This document shows, piece after piece, positions 5,379 to 37,130 of a DNA stretch of 37,345 bases. The notes below the pieces were generated by a model. The model had not been told where the DNA came from. It ran no database searches and saw only the letters and a program-made list of their open reading frames with translations. Each line of letters begins with the position of its first letter. Within the stretch, counting starts at the first letter, position 1. Source of the stretch: Thiomargarita sp. (GTDB lineage Bacteria; Pseudomonadota; Gammaproteobacteria; Beggiatoales; Beggiatoaceae); NCBI GenBank assembly GCA_020721025.1, contig DYNO01000003.1, positions 1 to 37,345 of the forward strand, written 5' to 3'. Made by a program: the position numbers and the translations under genes.

Positions 5379-8300
5379 TTAATCCAAAATTGACTTTTCT
5401 GGTGGGGCAGCAGGGAGAGAGACAGAATCAATTTGAGGTTTATCCCATGTTCCCGTTACACGATACTGATAATTAACACTTTTTTCAATTTCGCTTTCAA
5501 TTATTTTTTGTATAATTATCGCAATTGCCCCCACACCAAACCCACCCACCAAGGCTCCGGCAATGGGCAATGTATTGGAAACATGAGGGAAAACATTGAC
5601 TAACTGATTATACTCTTGTTTAATAAAATTAGTCTGTCCTCGAATTTCAATACGTGCCGCAGGTGCTTGAATAATCAGATGATCGGTATGAGCCACCCCA
5701 CGATCTAGGGCAAATTCACCGATGATGTCTGAAAAAACAAAGCCTTTGGAGAAGATATCATTGAAATCCAAAGTAATGCGACGCGGCAATACTCGCAAAT
5801 CAAACAAACCAATCACCCGCCCCACGCCCGGATCCACATCCACAATTTGCCCATCGGTCAAGAGAAAACGCAATTTTCCGATTAATTTCGAGAGCTTGAA
5901 ACGATAGGGCGTGTCGAACCAACTGACATCGACTTCGATTTGTGCATGACCTTCAGAAATCGGTGAATTGGTGAATCCCAATTTTTTTAGAAACAGCGGG
6001 ATATTTTTGCTGTCCAACCACAAAGTAAGCAGAGTATGCTGTTGATTATTCACATATTTCCACTCGCCTTTTGCCGCTAAATTCAATCCATCGTTTTTTG
6101 CTTCCAACAGCTCAATAAACAAACCTTCGGGCGTGGGACGGGTGTATAAATTGACATTGCCTAATGCCATCTTGCCCAGTTGAAAATTATCCGCATGAAA
6201 CGTGAAAGTCGGCAATTCACGCGGGTCGGTGCTATCTTTTGGTTCATTTTCGACCAATTCGGGCTTTTCGTCTTCTTGAGGCGGAATAATTAAATTTTTG
6301 AAACTGAGATTGGCAACAGGTTTCTCCTGCGTTGGATCAAACTGAATTTTGCCATCGATGCCTTTACCTGCTAAGGAAACATACCAGATTTCATCGAGTA
6401 ACTTGGCTTTTACTGCCACTTCATCAAATATTTGCCCAAACAGGTCTAAATGATCTGTTTTCACGTCAATTAAAAAAGGAACAGGAAATTTATCTTCTTC
6501 ATTTTGATTATTTTTTTCTTTTTCGCCAAATAACGTTTGTTGCCAAGTTCGCCACGCCAATTCTGGAGTCTGTCCCGTCAACTGTAGCACCGCTGCGTCA
6601 GGTAGGTCAACCGGCGTATCTTGTCCTAATACAATATTGCCACGAGTCAAGCCATGGGCGAAACTGAGCGTGGTACTGACCATTTTTTCAAAACTGACTC
6701 GAACCACCGTATCCCCCAATTTGGGCACAAACGCGTGAACTTGGAAGGGCAAAATTTGTTCTTTCGTTTTCAGTAACGGCTTGGGGAAATCGAGTTGCAT
6801 TCCTTGCATATCACTGTGTAAGTAAATATCGGTGTAGCTGGTTTCTGGCTGTTTTGTTTTAAAAACGCGCACATTACCTTGTAACAGCATCGAACCCGAT
6901 AAATTTTTATAAATATGCTGCCAGTTTTCAAATTCAGAACTGATGTTGTACATTTGTTGATAAATGAAATGTCTATCTACTTGACCAGACAGGGAAACAA
7001 GGATCAATTTTTCATGATTGGCTTGGGGCAGAACGTTGACGGTAAAATCAATGGGCGTATCCGATAATTTGCCGTGCATCGTGTCGCTTGCCAGATGTTT
7101 GCCGTCAAAATACAGCGCGCCGGTCACATCCGTGAGCTTTATTTTTAAGCTATCGTCGTTCACAATTGAATTTTTAAACAAAATTTTGACAAATGTAGTA
7201 TTCGGCGCAGCAGAGAATGGAATGTGCATTTTAAGCTGTATTACAACATTTCCAGCCACTTCTAATTTCCCCTTGCCGACATCAATGTCTTGATGCAATG
7301 GGCTGTTTTGAATGAATTTAATACTGTCTTCACCCGTTCCCGTCAATTCTCCAACAAAATCTAAAGCGGGTTCATCTAGCGTAATATCTTTAATAATTGC
7401 AGTTGCTTGTGTTATCTTACTGCGGTAAATTGTGCCACTTTGCGAAACTAATGTCACCGTGCGTCCTTGAATCTGTAACGAAGTGGTTAAATTTTCAACG
7501 GGGGGCCAACCCTGTTCATATTTCAAACGCACTTTTTCTAAAACCGTTTTCAGTTGCAAATTTTTCTTGTCAAGCAATTGATTGATCGCCCCTTGAATTT
7601 TGATCTCGGCGGTTCTAAAAATTCCTGAAAGTAAAGACTTTTTAAACCATTCCACTGTTGCGGGCAACAATTTATCTGGAATATAACGATGAATTTGGTT
7701 GACCTGTCCATGATGTAGTTGAATACGCAAATCGACTGTGGGAACTTGGGTCGGTTGATTGCCTGACGAAGTTGCGATGGGCACGATAATTTTGCCTGCC
7801 ATTTGAATTTTCAAAGTTTTTTCGTGGGCAAGCAATTGATGGACGATGAAGCTCCATTGATGAGCGGTTTGTTTCCATTGGAAATCGGCTTGAAAATTTT
7901 CTAATTTGAATGAGTGGCTATACCACTGTTGTTGATTAATCACCAAAGTCGCTTGTTGGATTTTGAACCGAGTTTGTGGCAAATTCAGTTCAAGTAATCC
8001 ACTGAAATTGACTGCGGGTAAATTGAGCGTAAATTGAATTTTTAGTTGAGTTAATTCTTTGTTAGAACTTAAGATTTTTCCTTCAAATTTGAATTGTTGC
8101 GATTGATTCTGATTGTCGGATAAATTGGCTTGAATAATAATTTTTTGGGCATTGTTCTGATGTTGCAAAGCCAACGTGATATTTTGCAAACGCACCGGTT
8201 TATTTTCCGTCGCTAACCAAGTTAATTCGGGAATTTTTAGGGATAATTCTTGTTGCTGTAATAGCCAATGTAACAACATAGCCATTTGAGGGGTATCCAT

Positions 8301-8438
8301 CGCGGAAGTCGCACGCGCGGGCGAAATGAGTGATATAGTTATACAACTCATTGAATAGACGATTATTAATTGACATGCGAATAGTGTTACGTGATGCAAT
8401 ATTTTAAGCATAGTTGTTTGAAATTCGGTAAAAATCAT
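5379..8438 (-). CDS. yhdP: YhdP-family (AsmA-like, TIGR02099-type) envelope protein
   Basis: The C-terminal region matches the YhdP signature by eye: GRVIGLFDLRVLPRRITLDFNDIFSKGFVFSDI...YRVTGTWDKPQI. There is an N-terminal membrane anchor. At 1019 aa it is shorter than enterobacterial YhdP. The start codon is uncertain (no clear RBS; alternative ATG at 8411). Confidence 0.8.
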   Translation of the reverse strand: MIFTEFQTTMLKILHHVTLFACQLIIVYSMSCITISLISPARATSAMDTPQMAMLLHWLLQQQELSLKIPELTWLATENKPVRLQNITLALQHQNNAQKIIIQANLSDNQNQSQQFKFEGKILSSNKELTQLKIQFTLNLPAVNFSGLLELNLPQTRFKIQQATLVINQQQWYSHSFKLENFQADFQWKQTAHQWSFIVHQLLAHEKTLKIQMAGKIIVPIATSSGNQPTQVPTVDLRIQLHHGQVNQIHRYIPDKLLPATVEWFKKSLLSGIFRTAEIKIQGAINQLLDKKNLQLKTVLEKVRLKYEQGWPPVENLTTSLQIQGRTVTLVSQSGTIYRSKITQATAIIKDITLDEPALDFVGELTGTGEDSIKFIQNSPLHQDIDVGKGKLEVAGNVVIQLKMHIPFSAAPNTTFVKILFKNSIVNDDSLKIKLTDVTGALYFDGKHLASDTMHGKLSDTPIDFTVNVLPQANHEKLILVSLSGQVDRHFIYQQMYNISSEFENWQHIYKNLSGSMLLQGNVRVFKTKQPETSYTDIYLHSDMQGMQLDFPKPLLKTKEQILPFQVHAFVPKLGDTVVRVSFEKMVSTTLSFAHGLTRGNIVLGQDTPVDLPDAAVLQLTGQTPELAWRTWQQTLFGEKEKNNQNEEDKFPVPFLIDVKTDHLDLFGQIFDEVAVKAKLLDEIWYVSLAGKGIDGKIQFDPTQEKPVANLSFKNLIIPPQEDEKPELVENEPKDSTDPRELPTFTFHADNFQLGKMALGNVNLYTRPTPEGLFIELLEAKNDGLNLAAKGEWKYVNNQQHTLLTLWLDSKNIPLFLKKLGFTNSPISEGHAQIEVDVSWFDTPYRFKLSKLIGKLRFLLTDGQIVDVDPGVGRVIGLFDLRVLPRRITLDFNDIFSKGFVFSDIIGEFALDRGVAHTDHLIIQAPAARIEIRGQTNFIKQEYNQLVNVFPHVSNTLPIAGALVGGFGVGAIAIIIQKIIESEIEKSVNYQYRVTGTWDKPQIDSVSLPAAPPEKSILD

Positions 8439-9252
8439 TGTTGCAGGCTTAATACGATTAAGTAAAAGTCATTTTCAAGATCGGATGAAGAGATTGATTC
8501 GCTATATTGAAAAACAAAATCAGTCACAAATATCATTAATTTATTGAAATATAATTAGTTTTATTATCAGTTTTTGAATCATTTTTTGGTGTTGTCCTCG
8601 GTTGAGATTGTGCGAAATTTTTAAATTTTCTCTTGGTGTGATGCGCCTAGATAAAGGGAATACGCTGGGTAAAATTTGTAAACGAGGGTATGTTACAGGA
8701 AAATTGAATATTTGGGGTAATTTATCAATTTTTGCTCGTCAGTACAACTGAGATGATTTTAAATATTGTGACATGGTGAAACATTTATGTCCATTCCCAT
8801 TTTAGATGCTGCTATAATAGAACCAATCGAGTGAACAATTAATATGATGATGAAGACAAAAAACGTACCAATCTGTTAAAAGGGTCTGTAAGCGATGATT
8901 TACATAACTAATTCAATTTATTAATGATAATTATACCATCTTTACCGAAAGTTGCAGCACTATTTTAACTACATTGTGATGAGCATTGAGCATTCATTAT
9001 CACAAATTTTCCCCAAATAACTATTTTATACAGTAAAATAAATTATTCTGGTCATTTTGTATTAGCTCAGTTTGTGTGCAGTCTCAATCATGCCGAATGA
9101 CTCATTGATAAAATGAGCGTTACGTGTTGATTAGAGTTTTTTAGCGCAATTTCAGCAGTAATCTGATAATAAATTTATTATATTTGAACAAGTTACATTT
9201 TCCATTTATCACAATCCAAGGTATCCCATCTTTTCACGGTTTTATATCACAG

Positions 9253-9633
9253 ATGACACAAAACTCTTCCGAGACCGTCCCAGCAATTGATACTAAGGTA
9301 CTATTGCATATCAAGCTCATGATGGGGGCGGAGTTACAAAGTGTATTGATACAACATTTTATCGACGGTGTGCAGCCCCAACTTGAGGAACTTCGAGAGG
9401 CAATTATCCATCGGGATATTACAAAAATTCGCCAAAAATCCCATCGTCTCAAAGGTGAAAGTTTACAGATGGGTGCGAATCAGATGGCGATGACTTGTCA
9501 ATTGCTTGAAAATATGGCAAAAGAGGCGAATAGCAGCGATGAGCTAAAATACCATGAATATTTAGAAAGATTAGAAATTGAGTTCTCAAGTGTAAAAATT
9601 TTATTGCAGCCGGAAAATGCTCATGAAAACTAA
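9253..9633 (+). CDS. histidine phosphotransfer (Hpt) domain protein
   Basis: Hpt motif SHRLKGESLQMGA with surrounding helical pattern. The ORF track begins at a TTG (9184); the first ATG at 9253 gives a normal-size Hpt. The 3' end overlaps the next gene. Confidence 0.7.
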   Translation: MTQNSSETVPAIDTKVLLHIKLMMGAELQSVLIQHFIDGVQPQLEELREAIIHRDITKIRQKSHRLKGESLQMGANQMAMTCQLLENMAKEANSSDELKYHEYLERLEIEFSSVKILLQPENAHEN

Positions 9634-19489: not shown

Positions 19490-19580
19490 TAATTAGACTG
19501 TTTAGCGGTCAGTGCTCCGTCCTGTTACCATAACAGTTGACAACAGATAACTTAGGTTGCTACCCATTTACAGGATTTTT

Positions 19581-19706
19581 ATGTTACTGGCACACAAAGT
19601 AGAATTGCGACCCAAGCCCGATCAGCTTGATTATTTTGAGAAAGCCTGCGGTCACTATCGACATTGTTGGAATCATACGTTGGCATGGTTTAGTCAACTA
19701 ATCTGA
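19581..19706 (+). mobile_element. tnpB: remnant of an IS200/IS605-family tnpB (N-terminal 41 codons only)
   Basis: The translation MLLAHKVELRPKPDQLDYFEKACGHYRHCWNHTLAWFSQLI* fits the TnpB/OrfB N-terminal pattern K-x-x-L-x-P-x-x-x-Q-x-x-x-F-x-K-x-x-G-x-x-R-x-x-x-N-x-x-L. No RuvC or zinc-finger part follows. Confidence 0.55.
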
Positions 19707-23506: not shown

Positions 23507-24115
23507 TCATCTTTTTTTAAAGAGCAGTGGATTAACTAACGGTTTCATGCGCTTAACTTCCTCCAAGTTATGTTTTAATAATTCATGCTGCCACAGTTCA
23601 TCGTCATCATTGATACAGGCTTGGGCAAGTGATTCTCCTATCTTTTCAAAACTTTGTCCGAAATTTTGTCTAAGTTGCTCGGGTTCTGACCACACCCCTA
23701 AAACAAAGACACGCTTCCTAAGTTCTTCCAATTTATTTTCCAATTTTAATTCTTCCTCCGATTTTAATTCTTCCCCCAATTTTAATTTTTCCTTCAATTT
23801 CATCTTCAACTGACGAAATGTATATTCTCTGCGATTGTGATCACCCGTTTTTTCATCGAAATCAATCAACAGCAGAACCATCCGATGAGGAAATTTATCA
23901 AACATCTTCGGAACTTGATCTCCAATGAATTTTCCATCGACTGTTTTTTTCCATCCATCTTTTGGAGGCTTCCCGGCACGTTTTCGTAACACTTCAATTT
24001 GACGTGAATCAGGCATCCGCCCCTTTATTTCAAGCAGAAACGCATGAGCGAGTTGTCGATTTGCATCATCTTCAGCTAATATAATAAGATGCGGTTTTTC
24101 CGGATCCATACTCAT
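23507..24115 (-). CDS. 202-aa protein of unknown function with Toprim-like E...DxD pattern and a central hexad-repeat coiled coil; candidate effector of a two-gene defence cassette
   Basis: Beta-strand-like LIILAE15DD near the N-terminus and LLLID85FD87E after about 70 residues, a Toprim-like acidic pattern. Residues about 104-135 are a K/E/L-rich repeat. The ATG overlaps the stop of the upstream ATPase gene (ATGA, 24112-24115). Confidence 0.7.
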   Translation of the reverse strand: MSMDPEKPHLIILAEDDANRQLAHAFLLEIKGRMPDSRQIEVLRKRAGKPPKDGWKKTVDGKFIGDQVPKMFDKFPHRMVLLLIDFDEKTGDHNRREYTFRQLKMKLKEKLKLGEELKSEEELKLENKLEELRKRVFVLGVWSEPEQLRQNFGQSFEKIGESLAQACINDDDELWQHELLKHNLEEVKRMKPLVNPLLFKKR

Positions 24116-25251
24116 AATTTAATATCCCCGCAAATTAACGAATCTATTAAATTACCCGTAACTTGAATTTCATTAAGTCGTTTGATTGAGGGAGGCTCAA
24201 GATGGCTTTTTCGATCCAACACGAAAGTATTTTCATCAAAAAAACGACTGATGGTTTCTTCATGATGAGAAGTGATTAGAATTTGCCCCTTGCTCTTAAA
24301 TGAACTTTGCAATTCACCGATGAAATAACCTACTTCTGACAGTGATACATAATTATCTGGTTCATCCCAAAAACAAAATAATGGCTGATTATAATCATTT
24401 GATGCCAATACGACTGCACAGAGGAAAAAGCATTTTTCTCCATCTGATAATTGATTGAAATCAAACTTAAAGCGAACTGACGTACCACTTATACTTTGAA
24501 AACGCACTACAATATTTCTATTTTTTTTGCCGATGATTTCATTTTCAAACTCATAAATATCTGGCAGAACATTCTTTAAGTAATTGGATATTCTATTGTA
24601 TGCCGCAGGATAGCGACTCAATAAACCAGATAACCAATCACCAAAATTTGCTACATTTCGCATCGGTTGCAAAGTTTCTTCACTGGATTCACCAGACATC
24701 AATTGAGGAATTGGGGCTAAAATGAGCATATTAGACAGCCACGTTTTGAAAACTCTCGATGGATCATCATGGGATTCTTGAATGATTGAAAGTGCAATTA
24801 AATGCCAATCTAACATGAATTTAGATTGTTCTGGTCTTGATTCAATCGAAATTTCACTACTTTGGCGAGAGTAAAATATTTGTTCATTAACTCTAAGATT
24901 TTCTTCTAACACTACAAGTTCGCCATCTGATAGTGCCAAAGCCAATTCATATTTATAAAGTTGTTGATCAAGCAATACTTCAACTTCAAAACGCATAGGA
25001 ATTTGGGTTTGGACACGGGAACGAACGTGTTTTGGAATATGAGCAAGACCAAATGTAAAATCGTGTGGTTCAATCAGGTTGCTAACTCGATTCACCCCGC
25101 GCCCAATATTTTGAAAAATTTCTAAAGCTGCACCGATGGTAGATTTTCCCGATCCATTTTTTCCAATCAATAGGGCGGAGGAAATGTCTTTGAGTTTCAA
25201 TTCAAAATTTTCCAAACATCTGAAGTTATGAACATAGAGTCGTTGCAACAT
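24112..25251 (-). CDS. ABC/SMC-like ATPase (AAA_21/AAA_15-type), candidate sensor/motor of a two-gene defence cassette
   Basis: N-terminus MLQRLYVHNFRCLENF. Walker A GKNGSGKST. ABC signature-like LSDGEK. Walker B LFCFWDEPDNY. H-loop ITSHH. Start set at the ATG at 25251 because of a perfect AAGGAG RBS 7 nt upstream; the ORF-track start 25392 adds 47 non-conserved residues. Confidence 0.85.
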   Translation of the reverse strand: MLQRLYVHNFRCLENFELKLKDISSALLIGKNGSGKSTIGAALEIFQNIGRGVNRVSNLIEPHDFTFGLAHIPKHVRSRVQTQIPMRFEVEVLLDQQLYKYELALALSDGELVVLEENLRVNEQIFYSRQSSEISIESRPEQSKFMLDWHLIALSIIQESHDDPSRVFKTWLSNMLILAPIPQLMSGESSEETLQPMRNVANFGDWLSGLLSRYPAAYNRISNYLKNVLPDIYEFENEIIGKKNRNIVVRFQSISGTSVRFKFDFNQLSDGEKCFFLCAVVLASNDYNQPLFCFWDEPDNYVSLSEVGYFIGELQSSFKSKGQILITSHHEETISRFFDENTFVLDRKSHLEPPSIKRLNEIQVTGNLIDSLICGDIKL

Positions 25252-25541
25252 GAGATACTCCTTATTGTATGAGAAGTTGAACGTGATGTAACCAAAATGA
25301 CTTATTTCATCTTGATTTTTTGCTGAAGGAATTTGACAATGATACACTAAAATGACGTGAAATTGGATTTTATGACTCTCTTTCGACATCACGCAATTTT
25401 TCGATGATTTAGAACGGTCAGTTGGAAACCTACATGGCAGTGGCGGCTATATTTTTTGAAACATCGCCCTGACTAATTTTTATTGAATTACCATAACTTC
25501 AAGTTTTCATACTAAAAATTGCGCATCCTACAAATTGCCGC

Positions 25542-25570
25542 TTGCTTATGATCCGAAGATACGTTAGAAT
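25542..25570 (+). promoter_or_regulatory. sigma70-type promoter of the tRNA-Thr pair
   Basis: TTGCTT (25542-25547), a 17-nt spacer, TAGAAT (25565-25570), then a GC-rich discriminator GCGCAG. It lies 21 nt upstream of the first tRNA. Confidence 0.55.
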
Positions 25571-25590
25571 GCGCAGATTATTCACCTCGC

Positions 25591-25667
<77 letters not shown>

Positions 25668-25693
25668 TCGCACCGTGACAGCAGATCAAAATT

Positions 25694-25769
<76 letters not shown>

Positions 25770-25819
25770 CTCATCCTAGTCACACTGATTTAAAACGCGT
25801 TCCCTAATTCAACGTCCTC

Positions 25820-26695
25820 ATGTCACACTCGCATTCACACGCCGTTGAAAATATTAAACTTGCATTCTTTCTCAACCTCGCTTTCACCATCCTAGAAATT
25901 TTTGGCGGACTGTTCACCAACAGCATGGCAATTCTCGCCGACGCACTCCACGATTTTGGCGACAGTATCGCGCTGGGTCTATCTTGGTATTTTGCCCATC
26001 TCAGCGAACGTGGACGCGATCAACAGTTTTCTTATGGTTACAAACGCTTTTCCTTGCTTGGCGCGCTGATCACCAGTATTTTGCTTATTATCGGTTCCAT
26101 TATTATTTTATTCAATGCGATACCGCGCTTACTTCACCCAGAAAGTGTTCACGTCAGCGGCATGATCGCGTTCGCTATTTTGGGCGTAATTGTTAATGGA
26201 ATCGCAGTGTTACGGTTGCATAAGGGCAAAACCCAAAACGAGCGGATGGTCACGTTACATTTGCTAGAAGACGTGTTGGGCTGGATTGTGGTACTGATCG
26301 CCAGTATTGTCATGTTATTTGCTGATCTGCCGTGGCTCGATCCGCTGCTATCTATCGGAATTACCGGCTATATTTTATGGAACGTATTGAAAAACTTGCG
26401 GGAAACCCTTCACATTTTTCTCCAAGCCACACCACAACATGTAGATTCTACCACGCTGGAATCTTTATTGTTGCAACAACTGCCCATTGCAGCGATTCAC
26501 GATTGGCATGTGTGGACATTGGACGGAGAATATCATGTGTTATCCTTGCATGTTGTGGTTGCAGACCAAATGCTTGCAATGGATATTATTGAATTGAAAC
26601 AGAAGATTCGAGAAATTTTGAAACAACACGCCATTGATCATGCCACCATAGAAATTGAATTTCAGCAAGAACAATGTGAGCTGGCGCATCATTGA
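25820..26695 (+). CDS. cation diffusion facilitator family transporter (CzcD/ZitB-like)
   Basis: His-rich N-terminus MSHSHSH. CDF signature region LAFTILEIFGGLFTNSMAILADALHDFGDS. Six TM pattern plus a cytoplasmic C-terminal domain. Confidence 0.9.
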   Translation: MSHSHSHAVENIKLAFFLNLAFTILEIFGGLFTNSMAILADALHDFGDSIALGLSWYFAHLSERGRDQQFSYGYKRFSLLGALITSILLIIGSIIILFNAIPRLLHPESVHVSGMIAFAILGVIVNGIAVLRLHKGKTQNERMVTLHLLEDVLGWIVVLIASIVMLFADLPWLDPLLSIGITGYILWNVLKNLRETLHIFLQATPQHVDSTTLESLLLQQLPIAAIHDWHVWTLDGEYHVLSLHVVVADQMLAMDIIELKQKIREILKQHAIDHATIEIEFQQEQCELAHH

Positions 26696-36810: not shown

Positions 36811-36898
36811 TGGTGCCCGGGGCCGGACTCGAACCGGCACGGTGTGTTGCACCGAGGGATTTTAAGTCCCTTGCGTCTACCAATTTCGCCACCCGGGC
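36811..36898 (-). tRNA. tRNA-Leu (anticodon UAA), long variable arm
   Basis: The reverse complement folds as acceptor GCCCGGG/CCCGGGC, anticodon arm AGGGA-CTTAAAA-TCCCT, long variable arm, T arm GCCGG-TTCGAGT-CCGGC, encoded CCA. Confidence 0.9.
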
Positions 36899-36910
36899 TA
36901 AAAAACTCAA

Positions 36911-36984
36911 TGGAGGCTGAAGCCGGAATCGAACCGACATCCACGGCTTTGCAGGCCGCTGCATAGCCATTCTGCCATTCAGCC
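36911..36984 (-). tRNA. tRNA-Cys (anticodon GCA)
   Basis: Reverse complement: acceptor GGCTGAA/TTCAGCC, anticodon arm GCGGC-CTGCAAA-GCCGT, T arm GTCGG-TTCGATT-CCGGC, encoded CCA. Confidence 0.9.
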
Positions 36985-37054
36985 AATTCTAATCACGACG
37001 AGAGTATTTAGCCAATCCGTGCTGGTTTTTAAGTACAAAAGATGACAACAAATT

Positions 37055-37130
<76 letters not shown>

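Follow-up and report, generated by a model that had tools for sequence, protein, structure and literature searches.

A 37,345-nucleotide stretch of Thiomargarita sp. DNA (GenBank assembly GCA_020721025.1, contig DYNO01000003.1, positions 1 to 37,345; hereafter, the window) carries on its minus strand, at positions 23507-25251, two overlapping genes that encode an ABC/SMC-like ATPase and a small acidic protein that is likely Toprim-like. The two genes form an autonomous, translationally coupled module with a patchy distribution across bacterial phyla, and we lean, by a modest degree, toward the interpretation that the module consists of a sensor or regulator ATPase coupled to a Mg2+-dependent, Toprim-like nuclease that would act in biological conflict. 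The pair appears to belong to the split ABC-ATPase/Toprim class and does not represent a categorically new system.

Locus layout and linkage of the two genes

The features of the cassette and its surroundings are as follows, in window coordinates and with the supporting evidence in parentheses.

24112..25251, minus strand: gene for an ABC/SMC-like ATPase of 379 amino acids (aa) (Pfam, PADLOC, motifs shared with homologs, AAGGAG before the ATG)
23507..24115, minus strand: gene for a small acidic alpha/beta protein of 202 aa, likely Toprim-like (family alignments, AlphaFold model)
24112..24115, minus strand: ATGA start/stop overlap of the two genes (sequence; overlap kept in homologous loci)
23739..23800, minus strand: in-frame tandem repeat of 18 nucleotides (nt), 3.4 copies, encoding a helical insert rich in Lys, Glu and Leu (Tandem Repeats Finder, TRF, score 96; direct-repeat family D2)
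25592..25769, plus strand: two tRNA-Thr genes (CGT, TGT), divergent and 340 nt upstream of the cassette (ARAGORN, Rfam)

At its full length, the open reading frame (ORF) of the ATPase spans 24112-25392 on the minus strand and contains an internal ATG at 25251 (ORF listing and sequence). We placed the start of the gene at this internal ATG because AAGGAG precedes it by 7 nt and because all homologs in a 73-homolog alignment begin at the corresponding MLQRLY, the residues with which the protein then starts. The original prediction, made from the letters of the sequence alone, had described two genes overlapping by ATGA in a low-GC cassette next to two tRNA genes, and this description stands: the TGA of the ATPase gene and the ATG of the small gene share ATGA at 24112-24115, the GC content of the cassette is 0.35-0.37 vs. 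0.44-0.48 on both flanks, and the two tRNA genes at 25592-25769 are both tRNA-Thr. Promoter and terminator scans gave results at background level.

The two genes are clearly not chance ORFs because the pair recurs in 339 GTDB species, the number in which relatives of the small protein were found among 185,579 species representatives. Our analyses of genome loci used the best 80 loci from these 339 species, each from a different species representative, and 86 loci were fetched overall. Directly upstream of the small gene, each of the 86 loci, the 80 genome loci among them, has an ATPase homolog (~55% identity); that is, homologous pairs strictly co-occur, the linkage on which the original prediction had been staked. 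Of 79 homologous loci, 60 retain the 4-nt start/stop overlap, which, together with the ATGA of the window itself, supports the translational coupling proposed earlier. When the flanking ORFs of 79 loci were called and clustered, only the ATPase and the small gene were conserved; a third conserved gene was sought in these 79 loci and none was found, the next neighbor families reaching at most 9/79 and tracing to closely related genomes. Strict adjacency, the kept overlap, and the absence of any other conserved neighbor together mark the pair as a two-gene module that is autonomous and translationally coupled. One relative (P0157, 282 aa, from a high-GC organism) is an apparent in-frame fusion of the C-terminal ~50 residues of the ATPase with a complete small protein, which may be genuine or may stem from gene calling.

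The small-protein family, with members of ~160 aa, returned 188 matches in an indexed search and at least 897 clusters at 50% identity in an exhaustive profile search (750 of them at E <= 1e-10). The distribution of the pair across phyla is patchy. Cyanobacteria make up ~64 of the 80 best genome loci (Nostoc, Microcoleus, Calothrix, Hormoscilla, and others), and the non-cyanobacterial carriers include Chlorobiaceae, Beggiatoaceae/Thiotrichaceae (Thiomargarita, Parabeggiatoa), Desulfobacterota, Acidobacteriota, and Gemmatimonadota.

The ATPase

The ATPase is matched in Pfam by AAA_21 (5.5e-15), AAA_15, and SMC_N, with AAA_21 and SMC_N spanning most of the protein, in agreement with the earlier view of it as an ABC/SMC-like ATPase of the AAA_15/AAA_21 kind. 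The nucleotide-binding motifs are likewise all in place at the residues that had been read for them, namely the Walker A GKNGSGK36ST, the signature LSDGEK, the Walker B FCFWDEPD, and the H-loop TSHH. The family is under selection as an active ABC ATPase because the Walker A, the signature, the Walker B/D-loop, and the H-loop are each at least 95% conserved among 73 ATPase homologs. This is a large family, with ~3,440 members at E <= 1e-10, every one of which is labeled 'AAA family ATPase' or similar.

Hma-embedded candidate 01 (HEC-01) is a published pair of an ABC ATPase, HEC-01A, and a DUF4276 TOPRIM protein, HEC-01B (Payne et al., bioRxiv 10.1101/2024.01.29.577857). The best PADLOC models for the window ATPase are AbiLi (1.6e-22), whose match is partial (profile positions 49-262/326), followed by several HEC-01A models, the best of which (PDLC04178; 7.6e-22, 76 bits) is covered from profile position 9 to 332 of 399, as a model match and not a system call; four further HEC-01A models also match. 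PDC-M25A, mad3 (5.5e-18), PDC-M07A, and AriA (5e-15) match as well, and the PtuA and GajA models reach only residues 2-119 and the N-terminal ~95 residues of the ATPase, respectively. NCBIfam scores are far under the model cutoffs (38 vs. 420 bits for MAD3 NF047739, 27 vs. 172 for RecF TIGR00611, and 25 vs. 500 for PtuA), and the sole solved structure matched by the ATPase sequence is the OLD nuclease 6p74, at the N-terminus.

The small protein

The two motifs read earlier in the small protein, LIILAE15DD and LLLID85FD87E, are both present, and their acidic residues are among the most conserved of the family. Twelve residues are invariant across 115 sequences (E15, D16, F26, G54, D85, D87, V136, F137, G140, G160, C167, and N183), and the near-invariant ones include D17, R20, W55, S143, E144, P145, E146, W175, H182, and R189. 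Searches of the window protein against Pfam, NCBIfam, and PADLOC returned nothing at E <= 1 except low-complexity artefacts of the Lys/Glu-rich insert; 123 relatives gave nothing significant against Pfam and PADLOC, and the family profile gave chance matches only (thioredoxin, a designed Rossmann protein) against the sequences of the Protein Data Bank (PDB). One family member has been auto-annotated by JGI as RNase M5, a Toprim enzyme.

We modeled the window protein and an insert-free homolog (P0021) with AlphaFold2 using the family alignment (pLDDT 88.9 and pTM 0.85 for the former, pLDDT 90.2 for the latter). In both models, four beta strands alternate with helices, and a helical bundle forms the C-terminal part. 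In the window model, E15/D16 follow strand 1 (residues 9-14) and D85/D87 follow strand 3 (78-83), and the equivalent residues of P0021 also end strands 1 and 3; S143-E144-P-E146 follow strand 4. Toprim domains are recognized by a Glu that ends strand 1 and a DxD that follows strand 3 (PMC12065111), and it is at these positions that the invariant E15 (with D16) and D85-F-D87 are found. On balance, the small protein is likely a Toprim-like, metal-binding alpha/beta domain. That is, the earlier proposal of a Toprim-like protein holds with respect to the residues, as the E...DxD pattern is invariant and placed after strands 1 and 3 in models of pLDDT 89-90, but the fold itself is weakly supported (Foldseek E >4e-3; see below). 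A PIN-domain reading was considered and dropped: no PIN/VapC structure appeared in any Foldseek top 50, and the model is four-stranded.

The original prediction had also pointed to a coiled-coil repeat of Lys, Glu, and Leu interrupting the protein, and the alignment bears this out, with the stretch at about residues 96-133 being an insertion relative to the ~160-aa homologs. The insert sits between strands 3 and 4 and is modeled by AlphaFold as two helices (95-110 and 119-133). Its DNA contains the 18-nt tandem repeat listed above (3.4 copies with 86% matches at 23739-23800, according to TRF), which yields (E/K)ELKLx hexapeptide repeats and shows that the insert grew by in-frame duplication. 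The closest metagenomic relatives, at 60-78% identity, have shorter versions, and the insert is specific to the clade of the window. The loop between strands 3 and 4 is permissive, as another member (P0208) has an unrelated insert at the same place; if the pair is an immune system, a variable insert there may tune specificity or assembly.

Genomic context and strain variability

In the window, the cassette lies between the tRNA-Thr pair and a 1133-aa DUF2126/transglutaminase-like gene, with a CDF transporter, a DegT aminotransferase, and polysaccharide genes beyond these direct neighbors. Contigs identical to the window were found in sulfidic-cave-type JGI metagenomes and in one metagenome-assembled genome (MAG) at NCBI. 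A close relative (contig L087; protein identity of 94% for the CDF transporter and 96% for DegT) has the same tRNA-Thr pair and carries rnhB (RNase HII) directly upstream of it, in place of the cassette; when L087 1-1100 is compared with window 25521-25948, nucleotide homology begins at window position 25521, within a 16-nt tandem repeat (25508-25538, 1.9 copies). A sister-strain contig with an identical cassette (L003) diverges from the window at ~19705. Past the DUF2126 gene, L003 (14917-20609) encodes an MmeI-type restriction-modification (RM) enzyme (1133 aa), HicA/HicB, a MethyltransfD12 (Dam-type) methylase, and a DpnII endonuclease, and the window has a polysaccharide-synthesis gene where L003 has these genes. 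This L003 block, some 4 kb away from the cassette, has the look of a defence islet that varies among strains. The breaks in L087 and L003 fall on either side of the cassette, so that the cassette is part of a stretch that differs between strains. A search around the cassette for flanking direct repeats or att-like sites turned up no convincing ones.

Collinearity between L003 and the window is lost at a 49-aa ORF (19557-19706, plus strand; MLPIYRIF...HKVELRPKPDQLDYFEKACGHYRHCWNHTLAWF), which we read by eye as the candidate N-terminus of an IS200/IS605-family TnpB. The insertion sequence (IS) remnant that had been placed next to the cassette is thus only loosely right: this putative TnpB-like fragment, the one candidate found, lies 3.8 kb from the cassette, beyond the DUF2126 gene.

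A copy of the pair was also seen in a Desulfatirhabdium MAG (SulCav_GS10_10, locus L061; 38% and 54% identity), which, by its name, may be from the same sample series (GS10_10) as the metagenome contigs of the window. This copy suggests a module circulating among unrelated members of the community. Elsewhere in the window, a second low-GC stretch (8001-9500; GC 0.33, the lowest of the window) shows a strong positive GC skew, and a cluster of three tRNA genes (Leu-TAA, Cys-GCA, Gly-GCC) is found on the minus strand at the window end (36811-37130).

A proposed mechanism and its alternatives

Under the interpretation that we favor, the ATPase would be expected, as an ABC-type enzyme, to dimerize on ATP and would hold or regulate the small subunit, as in the split OLD-type PARIS, AbiL, HEC-01, and MADS Mad3/Mad4. 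A trigger, for example a phage protein or foreign nucleic acid, would change the state of the ATPase; the acidic cluster of the small subunit, made up of E15/D16, D85/D87, and probably E144/E146 (following strands 1, 3, and 4, respectively), would bind Mg2+ and cleave nucleic acid (DNA or tRNA/RNA); and the cleavage would stop the infection or the cell. We infer the nuclease activity, the physical complex, the trigger, and the target, and the anti-phage role is likewise no more than inferred, given that the neighborhoods are mostly housekeeping and no phage copies were found. In favor of this interpretation are the identity of the ATPase and its conserved motifs, the described Toprim-type partners of its best PADLOC models (AbiLi, HEC-01A, mad3, and AriA), the strict linkage and kept overlap of the two genes, the invariant acidic residues at the ends of strands 1 and 3, the Toprim proteins among the leading Foldseek matches and the sub-threshold PADLOC matches to Toprim partners (both described below), the RNase M5 annotation of one family member, and the low GC of the cassette together with the rnhB found in its place in the close relative. 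A more specific version, which we hold tentatively and consider possible as opposed to probable, is that the pair represents a distinct, unnamed immune family of the split ABC-ATPase/minimal-Toprim kind, encoded on chromosomes and found mainly in filamentous cyanobacteria and large sulfur bacteria, with a ~160-aa effector that would be among the smallest Toprim nucleases and with a trigger and target that would differ from those of PARIS, AbiL, and OLD.

A number of observations argue against the nuclease interpretation, and we discuss them here with the alternatives on which they bear. The Toprim fold is a three-layer alpha/beta fold with a four-stranded parallel sheet of order 2-1-3-4, and the Toprim likeness of our models rests on strand count and residue positions, not on sheet order. 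In three Foldseek runs (window model vs. PDB; P0021 model vs. PDB and vs. BFVD), no match reached E <= 1e-3 or a template-modeling (TM) score >= 0.5; the matches to Toprim proteins were all at E >= 4.6e-3, with TM 0.37-0.46, and generic flavodoxin, receiver-like, and Rossmann-type folds scored about as well. The Toprim matches included, for the window model, the C-terminal Toprim region of the Burkholderia OLD protein (BpOLD, 6nk8) at rank 2 (19% identity, TM 0.37), and, for P0021 against the PDB, retron Eco2 at rank 1 (TM 0.44), which we take to be a fusion of a reverse transcriptase (RT) and a Toprim domain, with E. coli topoisomerase I at rank 47. Against BFVD, P0021 matched phage primase/helicase and DnaG-TOPRIM proteins, and an RloB-like phage protein at TM 0.44.

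Alternatively, the small protein might be a non-nuclease regulator or adaptor, flavodoxin- or receiver-like, that binds a metal, a phosphoryl group, or a nucleotide, with the ATPase doing the work, for instance DNA-end binding or repair in the manner of RecF-RecR or SbcC/Rad50. Receiver domains are also typified by an acidic pair after strand 1 and an Asp after strand 3, a pattern that fits the small protein, and Foldseek matches of like strength were obtained to receiver-like, PTS-EIIA, lumazine synthase, and small GTPase folds. On the side of the ATPase, SMC_N matches along the entire protein and RecF at the N-terminus, and the neighborhoods are chromosomal and of a housekeeping kind. However, our models are four-stranded as opposed to the five strands of receiver and flavodoxin folds, the RecF score falls far below its cutoff (27 vs. 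172 bits), and every nearest family of the ATPase is paired with a nuclease. A presence in only 339 of 185,579 species representatives, and the absence from the locus of the close relative, also misfit a core repair role. On balance, we regard this alternative as improbable.

A different possibility, which overlaps the nuclease interpretation, is that the pair is a diverged true member of the HEC-01/Mad3-Mad4 (DUF4276) lineage, already catalogued and missed by the thresholds of the hidden Markov models. The near-complete coverage of the ATPase by the HEC-01A model (76 bits, 9-332/399) would fit such membership, and the sub-threshold PADLOC matches of the 123 family members of the small protein are skewed to Toprim partners, HEC-01B being the most frequent (6/123 members over three models, best E 5e-3, covering the E...DxD region) next to mad4 (one member), ATPase-Toprim_I-B, and RT-Toprim_I-C. 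We aligned the family by hhalign to a DUF4276 alignment that was seeded with the HEC-01B sequence from the supplement of Payne et al., the low diversity of which (>=59% identity) limits the test; the match was not significant in local, relaxed, or global mode (probability 0.7%, E 0.079), and this also counts against the nuclease interpretation. The local alignment places LPEDD on LLEE and IDFD on RDQD, in register, within this non-significant match, and an ExE motif follows the fourth strand in both families with similar spacing (by eye). Nonetheless, the global alignment fails, the window small protein has no HEC-01B/DUF4276 match at E <= 1, the ATPase is only 24% identical to HEC-01A over the C-terminal 174 residues, and no Hma or MADS genes flank the pair. 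The DUF4276 link, which had been among those suggested for the small protein, is hence only weakly supported (hhalign probability against HEC-01B <1%), and we consider membership in this lineage rather unlikely.

The genomic context, too, weighs somewhat against a role in conflict. We assessed the six nearest neighbors in 25 taxonomically diverse loci (144 proteins), and these were mostly signaling, metabolic, or housekeeping proteins according to Pfam, such as histidine kinases, response regulators, TrkA, NmrA, and dehydrogenases. About 8 of the 144 match PADLOC defence models at E <= 1e-10, an upper-bound reading of the per-family table with no background control; these are a type I and a type IV restriction enzyme, PbeA, Csx1, and two ATPases, several of them in a single locus (L045). 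The association with defence islands that the original prediction would expect is, accordingly, not established (~8/144 neighbors in 25 loci, with no background control). In L045 (1825-7002), from an uncultured bacterium, a 645-aa DndD/SMC-like ATPase, a second ATPase (357 aa), and then a 294-aa protein are found beside the family pair; the last has CEG...DRDFD motifs, is AriB/DUF4435-like by eye, and may belong to a PARIS-like pair next to that of the family.

Moreover, searches of 2.9 million viral contigs and 50,697 phage records returned no relatives, and plasmid carriage was limited to two cyanobacterial plasmids, one of them with an orphan ATPase, so that an association with mobile elements or phages is not established. 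The orphan, on the Dolichospermum conjugative plasmid CP070234.1 (L108 8001-9309; 55% identity), has no small partner by tblastn, which is a further point against the nuclease interpretation. This orphan ATPase is followed by a 51-aa ORF and flanked by VapBC modules and group II intron reverse transcriptases. Finally, HEC-01, the closest published candidate, protected against no phage tested in E. coli (bioRxiv 10.1101/2024.01.29.577857); many comparable ATPase-plus-nuclease candidates exist, and the closest one so far has failed functional tests.

These observations bear on yet another explanation, namely that the pair is a selfish addiction module of the toxin-antitoxin (TA) type, or a stress module, with no anti-phage role, in which a toxic small protein would be neutralized by the ATPase and the module would be maintained through post-segregational killing or horizontal transfer. 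The tight coupling of two genes whose neighborhoods vary and are not of a defence kind, the patchy distribution across phyla, the lack of defence by HEC-01 when assayed, and the VapBC modules that adjoin the plasmid copy would all be consistent with such a module, and PARIS itself has been described as behaving like a type II TA pair. That being said, TA behavior and abortive-infection defence are compatible with each other, no autoregulatory DNA-binding domain is evident, and for an antitoxin the ATPase would be unusual in being so large and so well conserved (~55% identity). Hence, we view a purely TA-like module as unlikely, and continue to favor, by the modest degree stated above, the sensor ATPase coupled to a Toprim-like nuclease.

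If the pair is an active system, it would constitute a widespread new branch of the ATPase-plus-Toprim defence class, with a small subunit that current annotation models (Pfam, NCBIfam, PADLOC) do not recognize. The compact effector would then be well suited as a model of the gating of a Toprim nuclease by an ABC ATPase, and defence catalogues would be extended to cyanobacteria and giant sulfur bacteria, for which few experimental data exist. If the pair is instead not defensive, the pairing of an ABC ATPase with a Toprim-like protein would serve another purpose, and this would bear on candidates that are predicted from architecture alone.

Comparison with known systems

The combination of an ABC ATPase and a small Toprim-type partner is common to PARIS, AbiL, Mad3/Mad4, and HEC-01, the same families whose models best match the window ATPase. 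Nevertheless, the pair fits no named system, as had been anticipated, and none of the PADLOC, Pfam, and NCBIfam models matches the small protein significantly. By sequence, the window pair lacks the partner protein by which PARIS, AbiL, MADS, and HEC-01 are each recognized, and PADLOC-type rules would not call it.

PARIS consists of AriA and AriB, an ATPase and a Toprim-type partner (PMC11464382, PMC10568477), and thus has the split ATPase/Toprim architecture that is proposed for the window pair; AriA models match the window ATPase at 5e-15, and the proposed logic, by analogy, would be the same, with a sensor ATPase and a released nuclease. It differs in that AriB is a DUF4435 protein of ~35 kDa, as opposed to 160-202 aa for the small protein here, with no DUF4435/AriB match in the window small protein or in its 123 relatives, and in that PARIS is often phage- or satellite-borne, whereas the window family was not found in the viral collections searched. 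AbiL, a two-gene system of an ATPase and a predicted Toprim protein, AbiLii (PMC13064643), provides with AbiLi the best PADLOC match of the ATPase and has the same two-gene composition. However, AbiL is a lactococcal plasmid system, and neither the window small protein nor any of the 123 relatives has a sequence match to AbiLii/RloB.

OLD and the GajA protein of Gabija likewise combine an ABC ATPase with a Toprim-type acidic metal site, as proposed for the window pair, but both fuse the two domains in one polypeptide, as opposed to the two ORFs of the window, and no GajB (UvrD-like) helicase is adjacent to the window pair. For MADS, in which Mad4 is a DUF4276 Toprim protein (RloB is also Toprim-type; PMC12065111), the mad3 model matches the window ATPase and one member of the small-protein family weakly matches mad4; the MAD3 equivalog score is, however, 38 of the 420 bits at the cutoff, and no methyltransferase or other mad genes are adjacent. 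Two further candidates were rejected. PtuA models match only the N-terminal residues 2-119 of the ATPase and the small protein has no HNH match, which sets the pair apart from Septu with its HNH nuclease PtuB, and RecF/RecR was dismissed on the RecF score of 27 vs. 172 bits together with no match to RecR (HhH, zinc finger, and Toprim) in Pfam or NCBIfam.

The comparison with HEC-01 is the closest. The window small protein has no PF14103/HEC-01B match, the window ATPase shares no more than 24% identity with HEC-01A over 174 C-terminal residues, and the window pair is not Hma-embedded and belongs to a family whose distribution is centered on cyanobacteria. Yet the two-gene order of the window pair is also that of HEC-01, the coding regions overlap in both, the ATPases are of similar length (379 aa in the window vs. 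395 aa), the acidic alpha/beta partners are of 160-200 vs. 192 aa, and the HEC-01A models of PADLOC match the window ATPase nearly end to end. HEC-01 is, therefore, the nearest known system to the window pair in size and layout.

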